Assembly (NCBI GenBank): GCA_964437555.1
Contig: CAYTHI010000002.1
Coordinates: 7,653-71,652 of the forward strand
DNA: 64,000 nucleotides
Direction of reading: 5' to 3'
From: Candidatus Woesearchaeota archaeon
GTDB taxonomy: Archaea; Nanobdellota; Nanobdellia; Pacearchaeales; GW2011-AR1
Shown piece by piece: positions 1-44,230 of the stretch; the stretch's first letter is position 1; each line of letters opens with the position of its first letter. The notes under the pieces were generated by a model. It searched no databases. It saw nothing but the letters and a program-made list of their open reading frames with translations, and was not told the origin of the DNA. The position numbers and the translations under genes are program-made.

Positions 1-224
1 AGTGTTTATGATAAAATCAGAGAAATTGAATCTCAAAGAGAAGCTTATCAATCCGTCGGATTTTTAGGCGCAGAATGGATGATAAACAAATCATTAGAAA
101 TGCATCTTGCTATTCAAAGATTATCTGAAAAAAATCAGGAAATAGATGCCAATAACAGCACCTTACAGCAAAAATACAGAGAAATTGAGCAGTCTCTTGA
201 TAATAGAATACTAGATAATTAAAG
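1..224 (+). CDS. 3' fragment of a hypothetical protein, truncated at the window start; its C-terminal tail (QQKYREIEQSLDNRI) is paralogous to the tail downstream of the 1983..2384 lipoprotein
   Basis: Open frame from position 1 to the TAA at 222-224; shares the GFLxxxWxxxxSL...EKxxEID...KYxEIExSxDxRI pattern with the 1983-2458 region. Confidence 0.5.
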
Positions 225-237
225 CAAAGTTAAAAGA

Positions 238-1137
238 TTAATCAACTTTTATATCGCCTTCCGGCACGCAGGTTACGCAGGCATTTAGTTCAACCCACAT
301 ATGATAATCTCTCCCTGCGCTTCCTCCAGTTTTTCCTCGTCCAGGCAGGCAATTTATATCAACATCAACAGAAACCGTTACCGTACATTCATTTCCCGAG
401 CGCTGAAAATCGCCTATTATCGGATGTGAAATGCTTACGCTTGACGCGCAATCCTCTCCACAGGTATTATCCATAAGGTTTCTAATAAGACGAAGCACTT
501 CATTAAATGCGTCACTCGTTGCATATTCGCACGCTAAATTTCCTGTTCCAAATAATCCTGATGAAGTTTTAGTCGCACTAACTGTCTGGCTCGCACTTCC
601 TCCAGAACAAGAAGGATTTTCTCTCGTATTTACAGGCTCCATAAAGATGCTAACATCGCCACTAACTACTTTATTACATCCGTTCTGGCAGTCAATACTA
701 TCAATCCACTCTCGCGCATCTTCAATAAGTTGTTCAATTTGACGATTTATCTGCTGATCTTCAAAAAGCTTTTTCCACCATAAAGGATCCCTGTTTAAAG
801 GGTCTCTTTTTATTATTTTCTCTGTGACAAATGTTCTGCACATAGTAGCCCCGCAAGCCAAAGTTATTGAATCTCCGCCAGCTCCGCTTTCCCCAGTCTC
901 TACAATTCCCGAATCTTTGCCTAATCCTTGCTCAATTTTTTCTTCAACTTTAAGTATAAACCAAGGAAGCCCGTAAGCATTGGCTTCTTCTACCTGCTGA
1001 AGCTGTGAAGATGCAGAAGGGCTTAATTCAGCTTGCGTTTCAAAGTGCCCTTTAAAATAAAAAATAGCTAAAAGAGCAATAACCAAAGTAATAGCTAAAA
1101 TCAGAAACAATCTATTTCTATGCGCCTCTTTAGCCAT
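238..1137 (-). CDS. Membrane-anchored, Cys-rich secreted protein (hypothetical)
   Basis: 299-aa ORF with an N-terminal hydrophobic signal-anchor (LFLILAITLVIALLAIFYF) and many Cys residues; no recognisable family. Confidence 0.55.
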   Translation of the reverse strand: MAKEAHRNRLFLILAITLVIALLAIFYFKGHFETQAELSPSASSQLQQVEEANAYGLPWFILKVEEKIEQGLGKDSGIVETGESGAGGDSITLACGATMCRTFVTEKIIKRDPLNRDPLWWKKLFEDQQINRQIEQLIEDAREWIDSIDCQNGCNKVVSGDVSIFMEPVNTRENPSCSGGSASQTVSATKTSSGLFGTGNLACEYATSDAFNEVLRLIRNLMDNTCGEDCASSVSISHPIIGDFQRSGNECTVTVSVDVDINCLPGRGKTGGSAGRDYHMWVELNACVTCVPEGDIKVD

Positions 1138-1267: not shown

Positions 1268-1882
1268 CTAAATTCTGAATGAAAGTCTTGGAAAAGCGGG
1301 AACAACTCTGAATCTCTGATTGTCTATTCTGACATCACCATTGTCGCTATTATAAATATAATAATCATTTCTTGTAAATCTTACTTCATTCAAATCAAAA
1401 TTAGTCCATCCGCTAAATCCAGGAGTTATTGTAAATTCATAATAGCCTAAAAATCCATCTCCATTGACAACTCCGTATTGGTTTCCATGTAAAATTGTGT
1501 CAACTCCTCTAACATTATCGGTTAATTCCCCGCTTCCATCAGGAGTTGAGTCAACTCTGTTCCAGCCTGAAAGCATGTCATATCCATAGAAATAATCTTC
1601 AGTATCAGTTGGAGCAGGAATATAAGCAGTTACAATATTAAAATTAGCCCATGACTGCCCGCCTGCAAGAACAACATCCCACTCAACACCTTGAATTATA
1701 TCTGTAGGATGCTCTGTTGAGTCAGCATAAACATTCATCCTATAAACTCTTCCGTCAGAAACTAAAATAGTTCTTCCGCCTTCTATCTCTGTTCTGATTT
1801 CCATCTGCGCGTTCACAAATGAAGCAAATGCAATAGCTAAAACTAATCCTATTCCTAAAGTAAATAATGCCCTATTTTTCAT
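1268..1882 (-). CDS. Secreted hypothetical protein with signal peptide
   Basis: 204-aa ORF; N-terminus MKNRALFTLGIGLVLAIAFASFVNAQ looks like a signal peptide; Gly/Asp/Asn-rich body. Confidence 0.55.
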   Translation of the reverse strand: MKNRALFTLGIGLVLAIAFASFVNAQMEIRTEIEGGRTILVSDGRVYRMNVYADSTEHPTDIIQGVEWDVVLAGGQSWANFNIVTAYIPAPTDTEDYFYGYDMLSGWNRVDSTPDGSGELTDNVRGVDTILHGNQYGVVNGDGFLGYYEFTITPGFSGWTNFDLNEVRFTRNDYYIYNSDNGDVRIDNQRFRVVPAFPRLSFRI

Positions 1883-1982: not shown

Positions 1983-2384
1983 ATGAAAAAACACAATAGA
2001 TTAAAAAGAATGTTAGCAGGTCTAGCTGTCTCATCTTTGACGTTACTTGCCTCATGTGCAGACCAAACACCTCAATCAGTCAGAAATTTTTCATCTATCT
2101 ATGAAGGAAGAGAAGATAATGAATTTCAAAGGGAAATTTATAATGCATCAAGAAACAATCTGCCTTTGGCAGATTCAACAATATCGGGATTTTTCGCATG
2201 CGCTGAAGAAGGTGCAAGAGCTTATGCAACTGCACAAAAGCAGGCATATGATGCAATAATAGAAATTGAATCAAAAAGAAAAAACTACCATGCTGCCGGG
2301 TTTCTTGCAATCCAATGGGCATTTGATGAGTCTTTAAAAGTATCTGGCCTTATAAGCTGTTTGGAAAAAAGCATAGGGAAATAG
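1983..2384 (+). CDS. Lipoprotein (lipobox LLASC); apparently frameshifted near its 3' end, with a conserved tail continuing in another frame to ~2458
   Basis: Signal peptide plus Cys at MLAGLAVSSLTLLASC; the stop at 2382-2384 follows an A6 run; the paralog-conserved tail EIDPDNISLPEKYDEIEESIDDRIYR reads in the +2 frame through 2458. Confidence 0.55.
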   Translation: MKKHNRLKRMLAGLAVSSLTLLASCADQTPQSVRNFSSIYEGREDNEFQREIYNASRNNLPLADSTISGFFACAEEGARAYATAQKQAYDAIIEIESKRKNYHAAGFLAIQWAFDESLKVSGLISCLEKSIGK

Positions 2385-2566
2385 ACCCTGATAATATTTC
2401 CCTGCCTGAAAAATACGATGAAATTGAAGAATCAATAGACGATAGGATATACAGATAGAGAATTAATCACTCCTATATTGCCTTGCGAAATACAGCCCAC
2501 ACATACTTCTGTTTAAACCCAAATGCTATAATCTTTTCCACCCCTTCCCTGCCCTGCCAAACAATT

Positions 2567-5500
2567 TTATCTGTCTTCATATTCAAAGCCTATATTAGCC
2601 AAATCAACAACATCCATTTCATCGTCACAATTAATATCATATGAAGCGTTATATCCTTCTTGCCCAAGAGCCTTATTATAATTATTAGTAATAGATAAAA
2701 CATCCGCCAAGGTAATCTGCCCATCCCCCGTAACATCAGCATCAACAGGGCAATTCAAATTCTTATTAACAATCGTTGCCCCCGCAGTCCCGCTTGAAGC
2801 TCCAGAACCGCCAGCTAAATTAGTTGAGCTAAAGCTTCTTATGAATCCGTGCGCATTCATCTGGAATATCCCCCCATTTCCTCCTGCTCCGGCAGCACCT
2901 TCAGTTAAAGCTCCTGCTCCTCCTACTCCATCTATAACTCCATTAGTCCTGTTGAACAAATTAGAAACAGTTGCATTAACAATTCCTCCATTCCCGCCCT
3001 GTGCTCCGGCTTTGCCTCTGAATACTATCTGATTCCCTGGCAAGAAAGTTACATTCTGTGAAACATTCAAAACAAGATTTCTTCCATTTCCTGATGAATC
3101 AAATAATGTGTATAACGACGCGTTTAACTTTAGATTTGTAAAGTCGCAAATATTATTAGTGCATAATTCAGAATATAGTAAGCATGAGCTTGTAACATTG
3201 CAATCACTTCCCTCTGCACATTGAGGAAGAGCAAGGCACTGCCCTAAGTCAGCTATGTAATAGCTAGTAAACGAAGTTACATTGAATAATACTGTCGCGG
3301 CATTCAACGAAGTGTAGTTATAGCAGTCAAAGCAAATGCTGCTGTCCCTGAATATGTATGGCTCTGTAAAGTTTGCAGGCATATTGTAGAAAGTTATGTT
3401 GGCGCTTCTGTTCAAGCCAATATTATTCGTAGATTCAACAACAGCCAGATTATTTGACAATCTTATGTCATTGCTTAAATTAGTTCCGGAGCCATTTACA
3501 TCTCTTAAGAAATAAATTTCTCCCTGTGTGGTTTCAACATATCTTAATATTCCTCCTGTTCCCGAGAAAGTATAATTTGCAAAATAACTATCAATCACAT
3601 TTGTCCTATTCGCGCCTGCAAAATCAATGTCATAATAAGAAGAATTTGTATTTCTAACTGTCATATTTTGCAAAATATGATTATTTCCTGACAAAGTTAT
3701 AGGAGTATCCACTGAATCAATAAATGTCAGATTATCAAATCTGCTATTATTTCCATCAGAGGAAATTTCAACAGCTCCTACAGCATTAATGAAAATGCTC
3801 TTGCTTACGTTATAATTATTTCCTGACATAAACAGCGCGTTAACAGTCATATTATTAAATTCGCTTGCTGAAACTTCGTGATTATCTCCTCCAAGAACAA
3901 GCCCGTAATTAGCATTGTAATGCGAGTTATTTGTAAAGGAATTATTCCCATCTGCTGTTCCAACTGCATTAACTCCCCTGTCTGAAGTTGTAAAGTTATT
4001 ATTTGAGAAATTAGAATTATAAACTCCCTGCAATGAAACTCCGACATTGCCGCTGAACTTTGAATTCAGAACCTTGGAATTATTTGAGTTCAATAGCTTT
4101 ATTCCGACATTGCTTGAAAGCCCCGTGCTTCTTATTAAATTAACATTATTTACGACAGTTCCGTATTGGTCAGAATAAATTAAATCAACTGAAGTAATGG
4201 TATTGCCTATACTAAATCCATTTCCGTTAAAGGTTACATTTTGTGCTGTAATATTTATACATGCTTCTAATCCGGCAGGAACAAAGCTTGAGCCTTGCAC
4301 ATAAGTCTTGCCAGCAACATTTAATTCTTTGCATCCTGTAATCAATGAGCTATTAGTGATAGTAAATCTAACACTTGCTGTGTAATTATTATTTCCTGAA
4401 GTGTCATTAGCGAAAACCCTGAAGTTATATCCTCCCAAAGCAATTGAAGAATTTGTTGCATTATGCTCCCTGTTATCCATACTGCTCATGGTTAAATTGT
4501 TAATTCCGTCATCAAGAGAATACTGAACAAGGCTTCCATTTTCATTCAAAGAAACATTAAATATGAAAGGAAGGTCATCGTCATCATAAGTTGTATTTGC
4601 AGGGAAATTAATGGTTACGCTTGGAGCAGTCTGGTCTGCAAGAACATAAGTAACATTGAAGAATAAAGCATCTGTTGTTAAAACCTGCCCTCCTGCTGCA
4701 ATTCCGGTTCTTGTAATTTCATCTCTTGCCATTGCTCTTGTTCCGGAGCTTCCAAAGAAATTACTGCAAGTCCATGTTTCCAATGAAGTAACATTTGTGC
4801 AAGTCAACCCAGGATTTGCTGATGTTCCAGGACATGTTGTTGTTACATTGCTGTAACTTCCTCCTCCGTCAGCATCAACTGCAATTAAACAGCTTGCAGG
4901 ATTGCTCCCAACAATCCACCATTCATAACATAAAAATACATCTCCTGTGGTTGCGCAGTTTGTCACAGAGCTGTTGTAAGAACTGATATTTACTCCTCCG
5001 TATTGAGCCGTATTGAATGTCTGGGTTTCAGAGCTTCCGTCATCACAGCTTAGAAAATCAGTAATTTCTTCTCCGCCGCAATTTCCAGGATAAATTCCGT
5101 CGCATGCACTTGCATAAGAATTCTGAGCTCCTAAATTTTCAGCACTGCACGCTTGAGCTCTTAATGTCGCAACTGTAGACGGCTCAAAGTCAGGGTCAAT
5201 GATATGGTCAAACTCAACGTCTCCATTTAAAACCCTTAAGTCAAATGTGTCCTGCTCTCCTTTCAAGCCAGTCAAATAAACTTTGTTATATTCTTCTGGA
5301 ATTAAATTATCAAATACCGCAATAACTTCGCTTCCGTTAAATGTATAAACTTCTATTCCAGGATTACCGGAAACAATCCTTGGATAAAGAGTTATATCAT
5401 TTTCCGATGTCAGATTTCTCTCAAAAGTCACTCTTACGTAATCCTCTGAAGGAATAGCTTCGCTCCATACTCCGTCTAATGCTTTTACTTCATCATATAT

Positions 5501-7390
5501 ATCAGAAATGAATTCTTTGTCAGCATCCAAATGCTCTGCTTTGATAATTTCTATAATGAATGTCTGGTTGCTCAAACTAGGAGTAATCCATTCTACATAA
5601 TCGTAAACTCCATTTGAATTTATATCTGAAACTAAAGTCGGCTGAACATAAGCGTCCTTTTCCTTCCAAAAGATTTTCAGAGCATTAGGACTTTTAACTT
5701 CGAAACTTTCAGGAATATTTGTGAAAGACAAAACATCTGTATAATGAACACTATCAGGCCCAATAATCACAACCTCTTTTTTATCTTCCAATACACTTTC
5801 AATAGCATAAGGAGCAGGCGTTTCATACTCAATAGTCACTTCCTGAACTACATCTTGCCCTGTGCTGTCAACAACTTCCACAACATTGCCATCCACAGCT
5901 TTTTCAGATACACTAATCCCGCGTTCATCAGAAATAACAAGCCCGGTCTGACTGCCAAAAAGATTCTTTATCCAGTAAACAACAGAAATTAGGAAGTTGC
6001 CTTCCTTTTCCAGCTTAAGCTTTGCAACAACCTCGCCGGTTATTGCTGAAGATTCATCTGATGTAGTTTCTGCTGAAGCAGATTCCGGACTATTTGAAAC
6101 TGTTCCTGATGAGCCTTGCCCGCTGGATAAACTCTCTTCTACAATCTCTATAATATCTTCAACATCTTCTCCCCTGCTCGAATCAACATTAATCCGCTCC
6201 GCAATATCTCCTGACTTGCTCCTGTCAACCCTGACTATCCCGACAACCTCAACATTTTCTGCATATTCAGGAAGAGTAACAGTAACTTTTTTGGCCTCCT
6301 TTTCTGTTAAATCAATTTTTTGCACCCATTTCACAGGCTTTCCTAAAACGGCGCCGGTCTGCATTTTATCAACAACTATGTTCGCGGTTGCATTTTCTTC
6401 AGCAATGCCGCTGGCATTTTCTCCGGCTATCTCATTAGCTACTACTGAAACTCTCTTTTCCGTTTTGGCTAAAATTTTTCCATTATAAAATAAAGTTATT
6501 GAAATTAATTTGACGCTCTTTTCCGCAATTAACTCAAATTTGGATAATTCTATTTCTGCAATAAGCTTTTCAGAATCAGCCAGGAAATCCTCGCCAAACC
6601 CCTCAACTTTCTCAGAATAATCCGTTGAAACAATTAATTCTCCTCGTCTTACTCTGACATCAACTGAAGAGTCATCTATCACAAAACCACTGGCTTTTAC
6701 GCTTCCGGGCACAATCTCGGCATCCTGATTGCTTTCAATAGAATAAACAAAATTATTATCTTTGCTTGCCTTTCCTGAAATAATAAAAAAAGTTTCATAA
6801 ACTGTTCCTCCCGTAATTGGAGGCTTTTTTCCGCTGTCTCCGCCACCGCTATCCAAATCTGAAGGGGCTGCTGTATCCGAACCGCTTTCATCGCCTCTTC
6901 CGGCTTGATCTGCAGAACTCACGCTTGGAGAACCTCCCCCGCCTCTTCCGGAAGTTGATCCTATCTTTTGAGAAATGCGAATTTCAAATTCAACTTCAGG
7001 ATAAATTATCTTCTCTCCTAAAACACCATATCCCTTTCCGAAACCCACAATGTCTGTGCCTTCAGCATAAAACTCTCCAGAAACATGAGCTAAAGAAACA
7101 AGGCTGGAAAGAGAAAATTCTTTTGTTTTATCATCAATCTGAACAACAACTAACGAATCCTTTGGAACAAGCTCCCCTCCAAAAAGAGAAAGTTCCAAAA
7201 CTCCTCCGATTGGCTCCCCGACTTCATAAATAGCGCCCATTGTGTCAAGAGAAATTTTTCCAGTAGCTTTAGAAAATATTGAAGAATCTATAAACGAAAA
7301 AAATAAGGCTAATACAGCAGCAACAAGAAAAAAGTAAAGAACATACTTTCCTGCCCTTCCCGACTTATCAAAATTCATTTCATCCATCAC
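2567..7390 (-). CDS. Giant (1607 aa) cell-surface protein: N-terminal TM anchor, Ser/Gly/Asp-rich linkers, Asn-rich parallel beta-helix-like repeats, C-terminal dockerin-like Ca-binding repeats
   Basis: Single 4.8-kb ORF; N-terminal hydrophobic helix (YVLYFFLVAAVLALFFSF); long stretches of NxS/T-rich short repeats (GNNHILQNMTVRNTNSS...) typical of pectin-lyase-fold beta helices and of N-glycosylated archaeal surface proteins; C-terminal DVTGDGQITLADVLSI and DINCDDEMDVVDLANIG resemble dockerin/EF-hand-like repeats. Confidence 0.7.
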   Translation of the reverse strand: MMDEMNFDKSGRAGKYVLYFFLVAAVLALFFSFIDSSIFSKATGKISLDTMGAIYEVGEPIGGVLELSLFGGELVPKDSLVVVQIDDKTKEFSLSSLVSLAHVSGEFYAEGTDIVGFGKGYGVLGEKIIYPEVEFEIRISQKIGSTSGRGGGGSPSVSSADQAGRGDESGSDTAAPSDLDSGGGDSGKKPPITGGTVYETFFIISGKASKDNNFVYSIESNQDAEIVPGSVKASGFVIDDSSVDVRVRRGELIVSTDYSEKVEGFGEDFLADSEKLIAEIELSKFELIAEKSVKLISITLFYNGKILAKTEKRVSVVANEIAGENASGIAEENATANIVVDKMQTGAVLGKPVKWVQKIDLTEKEAKKVTVTLPEYAENVEVVGIVRVDRSKSGDIAERINVDSSRGEDVEDIIEIVEESLSSGQGSSGTVSNSPESASAETTSDESSAITGEVVAKLKLEKEGNFLISVVYWIKNLFGSQTGLVISDERGISVSEKAVDGNVVEVVDSTGQDVVQEVTIEYETPAPYAIESVLEDKKEVVIIGPDSVHYTDVLSFTNIPESFEVKSPNALKIFWKEKDAYVQPTLVSDINSNGVYDYVEWITPSLSNQTFIIEIIKAEHLDADKEFISDIYDEVKALDGVWSEAIPSEDYVRVTFERNLTSENDITLYPRIVSGNPGIEVYTFNGSEVIAVFDNLIPEEYNKVYLTGLKGEQDTFDLRVLNGDVEFDHIIDPDFEPSTVATLRAQACSAENLGAQNSYASACDGIYPGNCGGEEITDFLSCDDGSSETQTFNTAQYGGVNISSYNSSVTNCATTGDVFLCYEWWIVGSNPASCLIAVDADGGGSYSNVTTTCPGTSANPGLTCTNVTSLETWTCSNFFGSSGTRAMARDEITRTGIAAGGQVLTTDALFFNVTYVLADQTAPSVTINFPANTTYDDDDLPFIFNVSLNENGSLVQYSLDDGINNLTMSSMDNREHNATNSSIALGGYNFRVFANDTSGNNNYTASVRFTITNSSLITGCKELNVAGKTYVQGSSFVPAGLEACINITAQNVTFNGNGFSIGNTITSVDLIYSDQYGTVVNNVNLIRSTGLSSNVGIKLLNSNNSKVLNSKFSGNVGVSLQGVYNSNFSNNNFTTSDRGVNAVGTADGNNSFTNNSHYNANYGLVLGGDNHEVSASEFNNMTVNALFMSGNNYNVSKSIFINAVGAVEISSDGNNSRFDNLTFIDSVDTPITLSGNNHILQNMTVRNTNSSYYDIDFAGANRTNVIDSYFANYTFSGTGGILRYVETTQGEIYFLRDVNGSGTNLSNDIRLSNNLAVVESTNNIGLNRSANITFYNMPANFTEPYIFRDSSICFDCYNYTSLNAATVLFNVTSFTSYYIADLGQCLALPQCAEGSDCNVTSSCLLYSELCTNNICDFTNLKLNASLYTLFDSSGNGRNLVLNVSQNVTFLPGNQIVFRGKAGAQGGNGGIVNATVSNLFNRTNGVIDGVGGAGALTEGAAGAGGNGGIFQMNAHGFIRSFSSTNLAGGSGASSGTAGATIVNKNLNCPVDADVTGDGQITLADVLSITNNYNKALGQEGYNASYDINCDDEMDVVDLANIGFEYEDR

Positions 7391-10891: not shown

Positions 10892-12655
10892 ATGAAACTA
10901 AAAAGAGGGATAATAATTGCTATAATCCTTATTGCAATAATCATTGCGTTTGTATTATACAAAAAAGAAATACTGCAATTTGGGGAAGACAATGAAAAAA
11001 GCAATTACATTCCAGGCCAGGCATCTATCGGATATATAGGATGCTCAAACACAAGAGAAACAGTTGAAGGCTATCACAGAGTAGGCGGAGGAGACATGTG
11101 GGATTATGATAAAAGATATGATTCAGGCGCTGTTAAAGACTGGGCGCTGGATGCAGAGCCGGAAAAAAGATATTGGAATGTCTTTGATGAGCTTCTTGAA
11201 GAAAATCCGAAAACTAAATTTATATGGTGGGAGCTCTGCATACGCGATGATGAAAGGGAAACAAATTATGAGCAAGCCCAGATTATTTTAAATGAAATCA
11301 GGCAGCGAATTCCTGATGCAGTAATTTATGTCTCTGCACTGGCAGATTATACAGAGGGGGTGTGCGAAATAACAGGCACATTCGGGATAGAAAAAGCAAA
11401 AGAATTAGTCCGGGAATTAGAAAATAATAACGCTGATGTATTTCCAGGCCCTGTGCTTGGCCCTATGGCTCCAATTGATACTGCAAAAGACGGCTGCCAT
11501 CTAAGCAGCCCTGATGGAAAAAGAAAATTAGGAAACCAGATGAAAAAATTCTTTGATAATGAAATGAAAACAGATGATAATGAGCTTTCCTTTGAGGAAA
11601 AAGTCTGGCAGCAGAGAATTGACGCTGCTGTTGCTCCTGTAAATTGCCCTGCAGCAACTCGAAGAACATATCCTCAAGGATATTATGCGGAAAAATTGAT
11701 TGATACTCATTTTCATATTGCTAACATTCCTGATTCAACGCCAAGGGAATTTGAAAAAGGATATCAGGAAGAAAGCGAGCATCCGAGATTAGGAAAAGAT
11801 ATTAGCATCGCAGATATTGTCTGCACTTTAGAGCATGAAGGAACAGCAAAGGCTCTCGGCTTCTTCCCCTTGTATAGGGAAATCCAAGAACAAATGGCTC
11901 AAGTTGTATATGAAACAATGCAAAAATACCCTGACAAATTTATTCCATTTATCATGCCTCCTGATAATGATGGCAGCCCTGATGGATTTCCAACAGTAGA
12001 AGCACAAACCTTGCAGGAAATGCTCAATATTTATCCTGGCTTGTTTGAAGGATACGGAGAAATTGGCTTATATGCGCGGGGAGACAATGGAGGCCCGACA
12101 GGCGCCCCAGAGCTCCCTCCAGACTCTCAAAGGCTTGCTGATATTTATCCAATAATCAGAGAAAATAATTTAGTTATTTACTTTCATTTAGGAGAAGGGC
12201 AAAAGGAAAGTTTTGAAACAGCCTTGACAGCAAATCCTGATATTAATTTCATCTGGCATGGAGACCAATTAATCCCATATGAAAATGGCATTCAAAACTT
12301 AGAGCATATTGATGATATTTTAAGCAATCATCCAAATGCATATTACGGAATAGATGAATTATATGGAGACATCTGGCTTCTCCGCCCTGAAGTCAGCAAG
12401 GAAGAATTTTTAGCGCATTTTGAAAATCAGGAAGAATTATTGGAAAAAGACCTTGCTACATGGAAAAATTTTATAGACTCCCATCCTAATCAGGTATTAT
12501 GGGGAACAGACAGGGGATGGAGTTCCAAATGGTCAATAGATAAAGATGTCGGAATAACATTATCTGATTACACCCGCGCTTTCATCGGCAGGCTCTCCCC
12601 AGATGTTCAGGAAAAATTCGCCTACAAAAATGCCGAGAGATTGTTTGGCGAATAA
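10892..12655 (+). CDS. Membrane-anchored two-domain protein with a C-terminal amidohydrolase-2/TIM-barrel metal-dependent hydrolase-like domain
   Basis: N-terminal TM helix (IIIAIILIAIIIAFVLY); DTHFHIAN and C-terminal LWGTDRGW motifs resemble amidohydrolase_2 family proteins. Confidence 0.5.
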   Translation: MKLKRGIIIAIILIAIIIAFVLYKKEILQFGEDNEKSNYIPGQASIGYIGCSNTRETVEGYHRVGGGDMWDYDKRYDSGAVKDWALDAEPEKRYWNVFDELLEENPKTKFIWWELCIRDDERETNYEQAQIILNEIRQRIPDAVIYVSALADYTEGVCEITGTFGIEKAKELVRELENNNADVFPGPVLGPMAPIDTAKDGCHLSSPDGKRKLGNQMKKFFDNEMKTDDNELSFEEKVWQQRIDAAVAPVNCPAATRRTYPQGYYAEKLIDTHFHIANIPDSTPREFEKGYQEESEHPRLGKDISIADIVCTLEHEGTAKALGFFPLYREIQEQMAQVVYETMQKYPDKFIPFIMPPDNDGSPDGFPTVEAQTLQEMLNIYPGLFEGYGEIGLYARGDNGGPTGAPELPPDSQRLADIYPIIRENNLVIYFHLGEGQKESFETALTANPDINFIWHGDQLIPYENGIQNLEHIDDILSNHPNAYYGIDELYGDIWLLRPEVSKEEFLAHFENQEELLEKDLATWKNFIDSHPNQVLWGTDRGWSSKWSIDKDVGITLSDYTRAFIGRLSPDVQEKFAYKNAERLFGE

Positions 12656-20510: not shown

Positions 20511-20532
20511 GAAGAAATAAAGATTAACTTGT

Positions 20533-20619
20533 GATCCCGTAGCTCAGCCTGGTTAGAGCACTGCTCTGATAAGCCTATCAGAAAGGCAGGGGTCCCAAGT
20601 TCAAATCTTGGCGGGATCA
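20533..20619 (+). tRNA. tRNA-Ile (anticodon GAT) with a 12-nt intron at the canonical 37/38 position
   Basis: Acceptor GATCCCG/CGGGATC, D-arm GCTC-AGCCTGGTTA-GAGC, anticodon stem CTGCT/GGCAG with loop CTGATAA, T-arm CCAAG-TTCAAAT-CTTGG; the inserted GCCTATCAGAAA has TATCAG pairing with CTGATA (BHB-like). Confidence 0.75.
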
Positions 20620-20654
20620 TTCATAAAAGAGCATACTTAAACAAAGAGAGCAAA

Positions 20655-35304: not shown

Positions 35305-38300
35305 ATGGAGATTAAAAAACAAGAGGAATTTGTCTTAGAAGCAAAAAAGTTCTTTGAAGTATACAAAAAAGATATTGGAAAATCTTTGAGAAGCGAAGAA
35401 AGCGTTATTTATCTTAATTTCGGAGATGTTCTGCAATTTTCTCCTTCTTTAGCTGAAAAGCTCGTAGACACTCCGGAAGAAACCCTTGCGCTGTTAGAGC
35501 TTGCAATGGAAGAATCAGGATTAAGAGAAAGGCCAAGGATTAGGATTAAAGAGCTTCCCGCTTCTACAGATATAAAAATAAGAGAAATAAGAGCAAAACA
35601 TTTAGACAAGTTCCTGCAGATAGAAGGAATTGTCAAGCAAGCTTCTGAAGTAAGGCCGCAGGTAGTGAATGCAAGATTTGAATGCCCAACATGCGGCGCA
35701 ATTCTCTCTGTATTGCAGATAGATAAAAAATTCAGAGAGCCCGCGAGATGTTCATGCGGAAGAAAAGGCCAATTCAATTTGCTTTCAAAAGAAATGGTTG
35801 ATGCTCAAAGATTAGTTATAGAGGAAGCTTCTGATTCTCTCGACGGAGGAGAACAGCCGAGAAGAATAAATATTTTTCTAAAAGAAGATTTAGTAGATCC
35901 TCGAATGGAAGAAAGAACAACTCCTGGAAGCAGGGTTAAAGTTCTCGGTGTTCTGAAAGAAGTTCCGATTCCTTTGCAAACAGGCTCTATATCTACTCGC
36001 TTTGATCTCGCAATAGAAGCCAACAACATGATTCCGTTGGAAGAAACATTTGAAGACTTGCAAATAAGTGAAGAAGAGGAAAAGCAGATAAATGAGCTGG
36101 CTTCAGACCCTTACGCTCACAAGAAGCTTTCTCAAAGCATTGCCCCAAGCGTATATGGATTTGAAAGAATAAAAGAGGCAATTCTTTTGCAATTATTCTC
36201 AGGAGTAAAAAAAGTAAAATCTGATGGAGGAAGAACAAGGGGAGATATCCATATACTTTTAGTAGGAGATCCGGGCGTAGCGAAATCCGTAACTCTGAAA
36301 TTTGTTTCAACAATTGCCCCGAAAGGAAGATATGTTTCAGGAAAAGCAGCGACTGCAGCAGGATTAACAGCGGCAGTTGTAAAAGACGAATTCTTAAAAG
36401 GATGGTCTTTAGAAGCAGGAGCAATGGTATTGGCAAATAAAGGTCTTGTCTGTATAGATGAGATAGAAAAGATGGATGAGCAGGATCGTTCAACTATGCA
36501 TGAAGCAATGGAGCAGCAATGCTACCATAAAGACACGATTATATCCATGGCTGATGGTTCAGAAGCTAAAATAGGAGATTTAGTAGAAGAGCTATTAGAA
36601 AGAAATAAAGGCAAAATAATCAAAGGCAAAGACTGCCTTATCCTTCCTGTTGAAAACCTAGAAGTGCTTACAACTGATTTTACAAATGTCTTCAAAACAA
36701 AAGCCACGAGGATAAGCAAGCATAAAGCCTTTGACAGATTTATCAAAATAAAATTCTCTCATGGCAGAGAGATAACAGTCACGCCAGAGCATCCTGTGTT
36801 TACTGCTGAAAATGGAGAAATAATCACGAAAAGAGCTGATGAAATAAAAATAGGCAATTCTGCCCCCATACCCTTAAATATTCCGATAATAGGAAAAGAA
36901 CAAAACTTCGAACCAATACTGCTGATAGAAAATGAGAGAATAAAGCAGCAAATAAAAATTCCGCAGAAGAACTGCCAAGAATTATTCAAAATAGTAGGGT
37001 ACTTAATTTCAGAGGGCTCCAGGGAAAAAAACAGAGGGAAAATTGTAGGAGTTAATTTTACAAATAAAGATAAACGCGTATTGGAAGATTTTGAGAGCGG
37101 TATGCATAAAGTTTTTAACCTAAAGCCTTACAAACAAACTAAGATAGACGACCATGAGCCAAGAGATATGTACAGATATTCTTCAGTTAATCTAATCAGT
37201 TTTATAAGTAAGAATATGCCATCTTTGCTTAGAAAGTCAGGCAGTAAAGAAATCCCTGAATTTGCAATGAGAGGAAGAAAAGAAGATATCGCAAAAATGC
37301 TTTCTTCCTTATTTGAAGGAGACGGGTATGCTGCGATTAAAAAGAGAACAATAAGAATTGGATATAAAACCAAAAGCAAGAGACTTGCAGAACAAATTCA
37401 GGATTTATTGTTAAGATTTGGCATAAGAAGTTCTATAACAGAACACATGGGATTTTATAGGGTGGGAATAGCTGAATATACCAATATTCAAAGATTTAGA
37501 AAGGATATTGGTTTCTTCACAGAAGAAAAAAACAGAATAATAGACTACTATCTTAGAACTAAGCTCATTAAAAGGCATGTAAAAAACATAATACCGGTCG
37601 AATTTAATGAGAAAATTATCAGTATCCTCAAAGAAGAAGGTATAAGTGACGTTGGGAAATATAAAATATACGATATAATCTATGACCATCAAAAAAGAAA
37701 AGATAAATTTTCATTTTCAACAGAATTCCTAAGAAATCTTCTGCCATTGATAAAGGGTTATAAAAATAAAAAATATATAGAGCAATTCACAAAAGATATT
37801 GGCTGGGAATATATCAAAGGAATAGAGATAATTGAAAACGAAGATGAAAATTGGGTTTATGACATTACGATAGAGCCAAATCACTCTTTTATTTCACAAG
37901 CTGCTATACTTCATAATACTGTCACCATCTCCAAAGCAAACATCCAGGCATCACTAAGAGCCGAGACATCTGTTCTTGCAGCAGGAAACCCAAAGCTCGG
38001 AAGATTTGACCCATTTACGCCGATTCCGCAACAGATAGACATTTCTCCTGCCTTGCTCAGCAGATTTGATGTTATTTTTGTCCTTCGTGATTTGCCAAAC
38101 AAAGGCCAGGATGAAGCAATAGCCTCGCATATATTGGAAGAACACAAACAAACAGTAATAAGAGATGTAGTTGAGCCAAATCTACTAAGAAAATATATTG
38201 CCTATGCCAAAAAGATAAAACCAAAACTGACAGAAGAAGCAAGCGATGAAATAAAAGATTTCTACATTTCATTAAGAAATCAATCAGTCAGAACAGATAC

Positions 38301-38712
38301 AGACATAAAGCCAATTCCTATAACAGCAAGGCAATTAGAAGCAATAGTAAGATTATCGGAAGCCTGCGCACGTGTAAGATTAAGTGAAACAGTTTCAAGG
38401 GATGACGCAAAAAAAGCAATAAATCTTCTGAAATTTTCTCTTAGCCAGGTCGGCTATGATGAAGAGACAAAAGCGTTTGATATAGACAGGATAACAACAG
38501 GAATCTCATCTTCAAAGAGAGGAAAAATAATAAGCGTAAAAGAAACATTGACAAAATTAGAGTCAAGGCTTGGAAAGCTTATTCCCATAGAAGAACTGCA
38601 AAAAGAATTAGAAGGAAAAATATCAGAAACAGAGATTGAAGAAGCAATAAATCAGCTTGACAAATCCGGGGATATTTTCAGGCCCAAGCCTGGTTATATT
38701 CAGAAGTTATAA
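35305..38712 (+). CDS. mcm: MCM replicative helicase with an in-frame 466-aa intein
   Basis: Zn-finger CPTCG...CSCG, Walker A GDPGVAKS, Walker B CIDEIEKMD, arginine finger SRFD; exteins total ~669 aa. Confidence 0.9.
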   Translation: MEIKKQEEFVLEAKKFFEVYKKDIGKSLRSEESVIYLNFGDVLQFSPSLAEKLVDTPEETLALLELAMEESGLRERPRIRIKELPASTDIKIREIRAKHLDKFLQIEGIVKQASEVRPQVVNARFECPTCGAILSVLQIDKKFREPARCSCGRKGQFNLLSKEMVDAQRLVIEEASDSLDGGEQPRRINIFLKEDLVDPRMEERTTPGSRVKVLGVLKEVPIPLQTGSISTRFDLAIEANNMIPLEETFEDLQISEEEEKQINELASDPYAHKKLSQSIAPSVYGFERIKEAILLQLFSGVKKVKSDGGRTRGDIHILLVGDPGVAKSVTLKFVSTIAPKGRYVSGKAATAAGLTAAVVKDEFLKGWSLEAGAMVLANKGLVCIDEIEKMDEQDRSTMHEAMEQQCYHKDTIISMADGSEAKIGDLVEELLERNKGKIIKGKDCLILPVENLEVLTTDFTNVFKTKATRISKHKAFDRFIKIKFSHGREITVTPEHPVFTAENGEIITKRADEIKIGNSAPIPLNIPIIGKEQNFEPILLIENERIKQQIKIPQKNCQELFKIVGYLISEGSREKNRGKIVGVNFTNKDKRVLEDFESGMHKVFNLKPYKQTKIDDHEPRDMYRYSSVNLISFISKNMPSLLRKSGSKEIPEFAMRGRKEDIAKMLSSLFEGDGYAAIKKRTIRIGYKTKSKRLAEQIQDLLLRFGIRSSITEHMGFYRVGIAEYTNIQRFRKDIGFFTEEKNRIIDYYLRTKLIKRHVKNIIPVEFNEKIISILKEEGISDVGKYKIYDIIYDHQKRKDKFSFSTEFLRNLLPLIKGYKNKKYIEQFTKDIGWEYIKGIEIIENEDENWVYDITIEPNHSFISQAAILHNTVTISKANIQASLRAETSVLAAGNPKLGRFDPFTPIPQQIDISPALLSRFDVIFVLRDLPNKGQDEAIASHILEEHKQTVIRDVVEPNLLRKYIAYAKKIKPKLTEEASDEIKDFYISLRNQSVRTDTDIKPIPITARQLEAIVRLSEACARVRLSETVSRDDAKKAINLLKFSLSQVGYDEETKAFDIDRITTGISSSKRGKIISVKETLTKLESRLGKLIPIEELQKELEGKISETEIEEAINQLDKSGDIFRPKPGYIQKL
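36520..37917 (+). mobile_element. Intein with LAGLIDADG homing-endonuclease domain inside mcm
   Basis: Begins with Cys immediately after EAMEQQ and ends ILHN followed by Thr (+1); LAGLIDADG-type blocks VGYLISEGS and LSSLFEGDGYA. Confidence 0.8.
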
Positions 38713-44070: not shown

Positions 44071-44093
44071 CGTTTTTGCCCCACAATTATTAT

Positions 44094-44181
44094 GTCCCCG
44101 TAGCTCAGTTGGTTAGAGCGCACGGCTGTTAAAATTAGTTTAGAAACCGTGATGTCCGAGGTTCGAGTCCTCGCGGGGACG
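44094..44181 (+). tRNA. tRNA-Asn (anticodon GTT) with a 14-nt intron
   Basis: Acceptor GTCCCCG/CGGGGAC, D-arm GCTC-AGTTGGTTA-GAGC, anticodon stem CACGG/CCGTG with loop CTGTTA-A split by AAATTAGTTTAGAA, T-arm CGAGG-TTCGAGT-CCTCG. Confidence 0.75.
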
Positions 44182-44230
44182 TTCTATCTCTCTAAGATAA
44201 ATTTAAATTTAATTATTAATTACCAATACA

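Follow-up and report, generated by a model that had tools for sequence, protein, structure and literature searches.

The 64-kb window analysed here (by which we mean the whole stretch of DNA, taken from a contig of a Candidatus Woesearchaeota archaeon) carries two genes that form the subject of this study: a large surface-protein gene whose product ends in a dockerin, and a neighbouring gene whose secreted product of 204 aa is predicted to fold like a cohesin. The large gene (2567..7390, minus strand) had been picked out as the largest of the window, with 1607 codons, in an earlier reading made by a model from the letters alone (hereafter the sequence-only reading), and its open reading frame (ORF) was recovered exactly as described; the runner-up, MCM, encodes 1135 aa. 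The length of 1607 aa is counted from a GTG. In the gene call of an identical public protein, the product is 1606 aa long and starts at an ATG at 7387, one codon after the GTG. A GGAG is located 8-9 nt 5' of this ATG and a TATATAAA element farther 5', and the ATG at 7387 is probably the true start. Only nine homologues of the whole protein were detected in a collection of 5.8 billion proteins, and all labelled ones originate from metagenome-assembled genomes (MAGs) of Nanoarchaeota, Pacearchaeota or Woesearchaeota. Together with an MCM gene containing an intein, ribosomal protein L15e and intron-bearing tRNAs elsewhere in the window, these homologues place the source among the small-genome archaea of DPANN type, as had been supposed; FtsZ and a type IA topoisomerase are also encoded, and the G+C content is ~35%.

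The large protein is compositionally polarised, as seen from the distribution of its N-x-S/T sequons: only 2 fall within aa 1-600 and 44 within aa 621-1500, where shuffled sequences gave 20.8 ± 3.9 (a difference of ~6 standard deviations). Over the whole protein 48 sequons were counted compared to 24.6 ± 4.3 in shuffles, i.e., about twice the expectation from composition, which bears out the dense sequons reported earlier. Glu, Lys and Asp are abundant in the membrane-proximal half, whereas in the distal half Asn, Ser and Thr are abundant and Lys is scarce. The enrichment of Asn-x-Ser/Thr could partly mirror the turn motifs of a beta-helix. The long Asn-rich repeats that had also been described hold for the protein, in which they are the degenerate coils of a beta-helix, but not for the DNA, as Tandem Repeats Finder detected no tandem repeats in the gene; an origin of the Asn-rich repeats as an assembly artefact was rejected for this reason.

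A single hydrophobic segment at aa ~13-37 (7280..7354; all features of the large protein are on the minus strand), the sole one in the protein, corresponds to the expected transmembrane (TM) anchor. It is followed by a first conserved extracellular block without Pfam or PDB match (aa ~42-138; 6977..7267), by the acidic, low-complexity Ser/Gly/Asp-rich linker that the sequence-only reading had recognised (aa ~139-192; 6815..6976), evident from composition with 22 Gly and 13 Ser in aa 101-200, and by the N-terminal stalk (aa ~193-735; 5186..6814), which comprises four more conserved blocks and a second acidic linker. The N-terminal ~745 aa thus consist of five conserved blocks with low-complexity acidic linkers in between and are common to homologues P0002-P0008, with the stalk region representing the entire protein in P0006 and P0008. 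No match for this region was identified in Pfam or NCBIfam using the whole protein and five segments, in Pfam using six homologues, or in the PDB using a six-sequence profile. Homologues P0003, P0004, P0005, P0006 and P0008 begin with a common Lys/Arg-rich cytoplasmic motif of ~40-45 aa preceding the TM helix (consensus M-x-x-KKY-x-x-K-x-GK-x-YGPY-x-Y-x-x-x-x-x-x-GK-x-x-x-x-YLG, also KKYxYKNGKxYGPYxY...), which is missing from the large protein of the window and from P0002. Because it precedes the TM helix in several homologues, this motif argues for the TM segment of the large protein being an N-in signal anchor.

The stalk is followed by a variable cassette (aa ~745-900; 4691..5158), which in the window protein spans 155 aa, contains 10 Cys and is unique to this protein. 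The same position is occupied by a LamG domain in the syntenic orthologues P0002 and L003 and by another domain in P0003-5. AlphaFold2 (AF2) was run on aa 740-1607 of the large protein with a 26-row alignment; predicted local distance difference test (pLDDT) scores were below 50 for the cassette (aa 740-915), and block-averaged scores exceeded 85 over most of aa 919-1389, which were modelled as an Ig-like domain followed by a beta-helix. The Ig-like domain (aa ~913-1014; 4349..4654), of the Big_13 or Y_Y_Y type, contains 8 sequons and matched FN3/Ig modules in a Foldseek search of the PDB. For the adjacent segment (aa ~1016-1266; 3593..4345), the predicted fold of a right-handed parallel beta-helix, as proposed in the sequence-only reading, was confirmed by the AF2 model and by Foldseek matches in both PDB (GH28 exopolygalacturonase 2uve, Klebsiella K1 capsule lyase 7w1c, isopullulanase, pectate-lyase, tailspikes and the adhesin PfbA, 4mr0) and BFVD (phage tailspikes and depolymerases). 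Homologues agree with this assignment: PF13229 and PF05048 are present in many of the 39 detectable relatives of the C-terminal half, and most of those with a named source are Pacearchaeota or Nanoarchaeota proteins annotated as 'right-handed parallel beta-helix repeat-containing protein'.

As the best fold matches include 2uve, 7w1c and phage depolymerases or tailspikes, the beta-helix could be read as a GH28-, pectate-lyase- or tailspike-like enzyme that depolymerizes surface polysaccharides of a host or matrix. However, identity to these fold matches is only 8-12%, non-enzymatic beta-helix adhesins such as PfbA match too, and the window protein's own Pfam Beta_helix match is insignificant (E 2.5). 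Within the coils at aa ~1070-1250, nearly every column conserved at ≥70% is Asn or Gly, and acidic or basic residues do not reach 60% conservation in any column, as judged from at most 19 aligned homologues and an alignment of degenerate coils that is itself imperfect; likewise, the coil alignment gave no sign of the catalytic Asp cluster or the Ca/Arg site of GH28 enzymes or polysaccharide lyases. With no catalytic columns conserved, the large protein is probably not a depolymerase, and we consider an enzymatic role very improbable. Conservation within the protein is highest at aa ~1267-1381 (3248..3592), the cap or distal terminus of the beta-helix, which features an invariant C1353 and C1356 (CxxC) and is shared only with proteins of Pacearchaeota and Nanoarchaeota.

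Beyond the cap, a Cys-rich knot (aa 1385-1415) and a Gly-rich GGxGG/FxxN segment (aa ~1420-1545), both conserved and together covering 2756..3238, lead into the dockerin (aa ~1547-1603; 2582..2752), and the three elements constitute a conserved C-terminal module. The dockerin has two EF-hand-like Ca loops with a helix after each, in agreement with the two C-terminal repeats of this kind noticed in the sequence-only reading. Both loops are intact with 12 residues each (D1552-D1563 and D1585-D1596), have D, N or T in positions 1, 3 and 5, are hydrophobic in position 8 and close with Asp in position 12, and are kept across 35 non-redundant modules from metagenomes. PF00404 (Dockerin_1) matched the isolated C-terminal 71 aa with 23.1 bits (cut-off, 22.9; E 8e-5) as well as all five orthologous C-terminal modules searched (best E 1e-5). 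The top PDB sequence match of the window dockerin was a Bacteroides cellulosolvens dockerin (2y3n_B, E 8e-4), and a profile of the five orthologous modules retrieved mostly dockerins first (2y3n_B, 4wi0_B, 5k39_B, 4u3s_B and others) and calmodulins afterwards. At the level of sequence, the dockerin assignment is good. The dockerin is also bracketed by two cysteines, C1547 just before Ca loop 1 and C1588 at position 4 of Ca loop 2, which are invariant in the five closest orthologues and conserved in most; among more distant modules both are absent in L017, L019 and L020, and the first alone is absent in others. These two residues may form a disulfide 'clasp', a concept described previously (PMC3821032).

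A search of the genome for a cohesin-like partner had been suggested together with the dockerin repeats, and a candidate was found in the secreted 204-aa neighbour (1268..1882, minus strand), which has a signal peptide at aa 1-26 (ending in VNA, before Q). Its AF2 model, based on an eight-sequence alignment, reached a pLDDT of 82.8 and a predicted template modelling score of 0.77. When this model was compared to the PDB using Foldseek, the top ~45 matches were without exception cohesins, with types I, II and III represented (probability 1.00; E 9e-9 to about 1e-5; target-normalised template modelling scores of 0.56-0.80), including non-cellulosomal cohesins of C. perfringens and the archaeal A. 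fulgidus structure 2xdh. The 204-aa protein is therefore predicted to adopt the nine-stranded beta-sandwich jelly-roll fold of cohesins. Its core produced no sequence match in Pfam, NCBIfam or the PDB (phmmer included), and the same was observed for its close relatives.

Eight close relatives of the 204-aa protein were identified, and an exhaustive profile search extended the cohesin-fold family to 227 clusters at 50% identity (E ≤1e-3). Most members are 190-300 aa long, and the ~60 N-termini inspected mostly start with a signal-peptide-like hydrophobic stretch. Among 112 members scanned, 25 carry a C-terminal Dockerin_1 domain (best E 6e-11) and 20 a PEP-CTERM signal. NCBIfam recognised only these tails in the 112 members, through PEP-CTERM models and a model for a 'GC-type dockerin domain-anchored protein'; as dockerin and PEP-CTERM tails are all that was matched, the core of the family goes unrecognised by Pfam and NCBIfam. 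By analogy, members fused to anchors and dockerins appear to behave like scaffoldin or anchor proteins. For the partners encoded beside dockerin-fibre genes, tails were judged by eye: ~14 are PEP-CTERM-like, ~5 have a dockerin-like repeat and ~11 are anchorless, the last group taking in the window genome and its closest relatives. Many anchorless members (e.g., P0068, P0085, P0090, P0092, P0094 and P0110; L021 and L036) possess a Cys-x(3-7)-Cys motif at the extreme C-terminus, e.g., RCVGVNC, VCTFPHC or KCSWPNC. The closest relatives of the 204-aa protein end in ...AKC(R/A)R, and the window protein has neither ending.

The genes for the two proteins are consistently linked. In the syntenic orthologue P0002, which follows MetAP as the large gene does in the window, the gene directly downstream encodes a 226-aa product that is 26% identical to the 204-aa protein over nearly its full length. 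A member of the cohesin-fold family is likewise encoded directly downstream of the dockerin-ending large gene in L001, L003, L004/5 and L006, and every close-relative locus with a long enough contig has a cohesin-fold gene immediately downstream of the large gene with Cys/Gly module and dockerin. To assess this linkage, metagenome contigs were scanned with the dockerin-bearing C-terminal module alone, and six-frame ORFs of all loci were then searched with hidden Markov models of the cohesin-fold family. This produced 35 non-redundant dockerin-module loci, 34 of which included sufficient downstream DNA to be judged, and an ORF of the cohesin-fold family was located just downstream of the dockerin gene in 30 of these 34. 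The gap between both genes is 38-350 bp with one exception of 1.1 kb, and the partners are mostly on the same strand, with five groups being convergent. Each of the four remaining loci still has a secreted protein downstream, including one PEP-CTERM protein that resembles a family member and two proteins with cohesin-like motifs such as 'LYGYEVNLNFTG'. On one 94-kb contig (Ga0210050_1000148), three dockerin-module genes within ~22 kb (L013, L037 and L039) are each followed by their own cohesin-fold gene, an arrangement suggestive of tandem expansion. In the 64-kb window, each of the two types is represented by exactly one gene, and 685 bp separate them. A scan of genome contigs using the cohesin alignment identified one Nanoarchaeota MAG only, the search pattern being too narrow. 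Overall, genomic association, i.e., the linkage at 30/34 loci and the dockerin fusions in 25/112 members, suggests that the cohesin-fold family is functionally associated with dockerins.

Based on these observations, we consider it moderately probable that the two genes encode a minimal cohesin-dockerin pair of the non-cellulosomal kind, by which DPANN archaea assemble or tether a large, presumably glycosylated surface fibre, and Ca2+-dependent binding of the window dockerin to the 204-aa cohesin-fold protein appears fairly likely. Several results weigh against this interpretation. The window dockerin is marginal, as it scores 18-20.5 bits in longer sequence context and thereby falls under the PF00404 cut-off of 22.9. 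Modelling of the 900-1500-aa segments, which had been suggested in the sequence-only reading, supported the beta-helix (aa 919-1389) but not the region beyond it, with pLDDT scores below 50 for aa 1389-1607, a part of the alignment covered by only one homologue. PF00963 (Cohesin) was matched by none of the eight close relatives and none of the 112 wider family members, and two profiles of the cohesin-fold family retrieved no cohesin from the PDB by sequence; because Pfam and PDB sequence searches were negative, the cohesin assignment relies on the predicted fold. Furthermore, gene adjacency would also be expected for other functional couplings, and the partner genes do not form one operon in the window, since a gene on the opposite strand lies between them and each has its own TATA-like element.

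As we envisage it, the fibre would be anchored N-in/C-out by its single TM helix and would extend outward through the lineage-specific ~700-aa stalk with its flexible acidic Ser/Gly linkers, the variable cassette and the Ig-like domain to the sequon-dense right-handed beta-helix and its conserved cap, ending in the Cys/Gly-rich module with the Ca2+-binding dockerin at the tip. The dockerin would plug non-covalently into the cohesin-fold protein encoded just downstream, making the pair a two-gene unit. For the many relatives in which the cohesin is anchored by PEP-CTERM or a TM helix, the pair may hold the distal end of the fibre on the surface of the producing cell, which matches paralogues P0003-5, where a C-terminal TM helix replaces the dockerin so that both ends of the protein have a TM helix. 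For the window genome and its closest relatives, whose cohesin is anchorless, it is more likely that the cohesin would be borne at the fibre tip or would cross-link fibres.

Tethering at both ends is also central to a different reading, in which the large protein is a cell-envelope or S-layer-like coat, i.e., a glycosylated structural sheath without specific adhesion. Its large size, sequon-dense outer half and N-terminal TM helix would suit such a coat, as would the second, C-terminal TM helix of paralogues P0003-5, and at ~14 related loci the PEP-CTERM-like tail of the cohesin (by eye) would provide a second tether. Conversely, the large protein did not match known archaeal S-layer families in Pfam or NCBIfam, close relatives differ strongly in domain content, as a lattice protein usually would not, and the cohesin of the window genome lacks an anchor. 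We therefore regard a purely structural coat as unlikely.

For a DPANN archaeon, a part in attachment to hosts is plausible, and the variable cassette would be suited to determining specificity. Taken further, the large protein could act primarily as an adhesin whose fibre reaches the host cell, with the dockerin or the beta-helix binding a ligand on the host surface. This ligand could be a PEP-CTERM protein with cohesin fold displayed by the host, in which case the adjacent cohesin would serve as a cap or storage partner until contact. The exchange of cassettes at a fixed position (Cys-rich here, LamG in orthologues) is what a specificity determinant would be expected to show, the breadth of the cohesin-fold family (227 clusters) includes many members anchored by PEP-CTERM, and in ultra-small bacteria giant ORFs with dockerins are proposed adhesins (PMC10066038; bioRxiv 10.1101/2023.11.21.568195). 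However, the linkage with a self-encoded cohesin (30/34 loci) points to a partner from the same genome, and the TM helices at both ends of paralogues P0003-5 suggest that both ends are located on the same cell. Overall, we view such a host adhesin as rather unlikely. It is distinctly doubtful, if conceivable, that the plug-and-socket arrangement is an interchangeable coupling for cassette-variable fibres in which the same dockerin engages PEP-CTERM cohesin-fold proteins on other cells.

The sequence-only reading had placed three further secreted or lipoprotein genes before the large gene. Export signals were found in all three, the 204-aa cohesin-fold protein among them, but the genes are downstream of the large gene and not upstream. 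Between the partner genes, a 133-aa protein with a lipobox (LLASC) is encoded on the plus strand (1983..2384). This gene is absent from the corresponding position in related loci and is probably a local insertion. The third gene (238..1137, minus strand) encodes a 299-aa Cys-rich protein without Pfam match, which is anchored by an N-terminal TM helix. A homologue of this protein is encoded beside the cohesin-dockerin pair in L006 (1743-2639, minus strand; 24.5% identity over 269 aa, E 2e-13), and the 299-aa protein may be a third, accessory component of the pair. The stop codon of the large gene is immediately followed, in the same frame, by a decayed duplicate of the final ~37 codons of the 299-aa gene (2468..2566, minus strand; 43% identical, with an internal stop), and a partial paralogue of the lipobox gene is found at the window start (4-102, plus strand). 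Because the lipobox gene is absent at other loci and a fragment of the 299-aa gene is present, the separation of the partners in the window looks like the result of a local insertion or duplication, and these remnants suggest that a segmental duplication of the convergent lipobox-gene/299-aa-gene pair split the cohesin-dockerin pair. A scan for sigma-70 promoters and terminators returned background level only, a model that does not apply to archaea.

Elsewhere in the window, the MCM helicase gene (35305-38712, plus strand) is interrupted by its intein, inside which lies a LAGLIDADG homing-endonuclease domain. The two tRNA genes (20532-20620 and 44093-44182, both plus strand) are 88-90 nt long and presumably intron-bearing; ARAGORN left the first unassigned and called the second Phe with an odd AAA anticodon, a call probably confused by the intron. 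A protein of 587 aa (10892-12655, plus strand), which has a TM helix at its N-terminus and an Amidohydro_2 domain at its C-terminus, appears to be a membrane-anchored amidohydrolase.

The plug-and-socket principle of cohesin and dockerin is already established, and non-cellulosomal modules of both kinds are known from Archaea and Bacteria (PMC3821032; Peer et al. 2009 via PMC10066038; PDB 2xdh). The pair described here resembles these modules (A. fulgidus 2xdh and the toxin and glycosidase complexes of Clostridium perfringens) in combining a Ca-loop dockerin with a single cohesin module encoded close by, in an organism without a cellulosome, and 2xdh is among the best structural matches of the 204-aa model. 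It differs in that the cohesin family of the window escapes the Pfam Cohesin model (0/112), the dockerin resides on a TM-anchored beta-helix fibre of ~1600 aa and not on an enzyme, and many DPANN-type loci have kept the arrangement of two genes. Similarities also exist with the anchoring of cellulosomes (C. thermocellum CipA type II dockerin with SdbA/OlpB), where the C-terminal dockerin of a large extracellular protein plugs into a surface-fixed cohesin, as is proposed here; the cohesin is attached by SLH domains there and by PEP-CTERM in many relatives here. In contrast, no multi-cohesin scaffoldin, cargo of carbohydrate-active enzymes (CAZymes) or carbohydrate-binding module (CBM) was present here, stoichiometry appears to be one-to-one, and the dockerin protein has its own membrane anchor. 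A role as cellulosome component was rejected in view of the lack of CAZymes, multi-cohesin scaffoldin and CBM and the single cohesin-fold domain per partner.

Further parallels come from ultra-small bacteria, as one essential protein of a Saccharibacterium carries a dockerin (PMC10633639) and cohesin and dockerin genes are expressed in bacteria of the candidate phyla radiation (PMC9123182). The window protein shares with the Omnitrophota 'Dockerin-type giant proteins' and the Saccharibacteria protein that very large surface proteins with dockerin or EF-hand elements occur in small-genome, probably host-dependent organisms. These bacterial giants contain numerous dockerin repeats, and no cohesin partner is identified for them, whereas the window protein is archaeal, has a single terminal dockerin and is linked to a candidate partner. 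With PfbA (4mr0) and the beta-helices of phage depolymerases or tailspikes it shares the fold, Asn ladders and an extracellular fibrous role; it differs from them in that no conserved catalytic residues were found and in the distinctive conserved cap at aa 1267-1381. We found no literature tying dockerin or cohesin to Woesearchaeota, Pacearchaeota or Nanoarchaeota, or to PEP-CTERM. New here are the divergent cohesin family, its fixed pairing with beta-helix fibres of DPANN archaea and the reversed logic by which the dockerin protein carries the membrane anchor.

Little is known of how DPANN archaea construct their surface and hold on to their hosts, and the majority of their large surface proteins are unannotated. 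The terminal dockerin and the cohesin-fold protein supply a concrete partner pair that can be cloned and tested, and the finding bears on archaeal cell-surface and symbiosis biology. Should the dockerin also engage cohesin-fold proteins on other cells, cohesin-dockerin recognition would represent a code for docking between species, here episymbiont and host, and not a means of enzyme assembly. Confirmed binding between the partners would add the envelope architecture of ultra-small archaea to the reach of cohesin-dockerin assembly, and the variable cassette together with the tip complex would offer a handle on the determinants of surface and host specificity.

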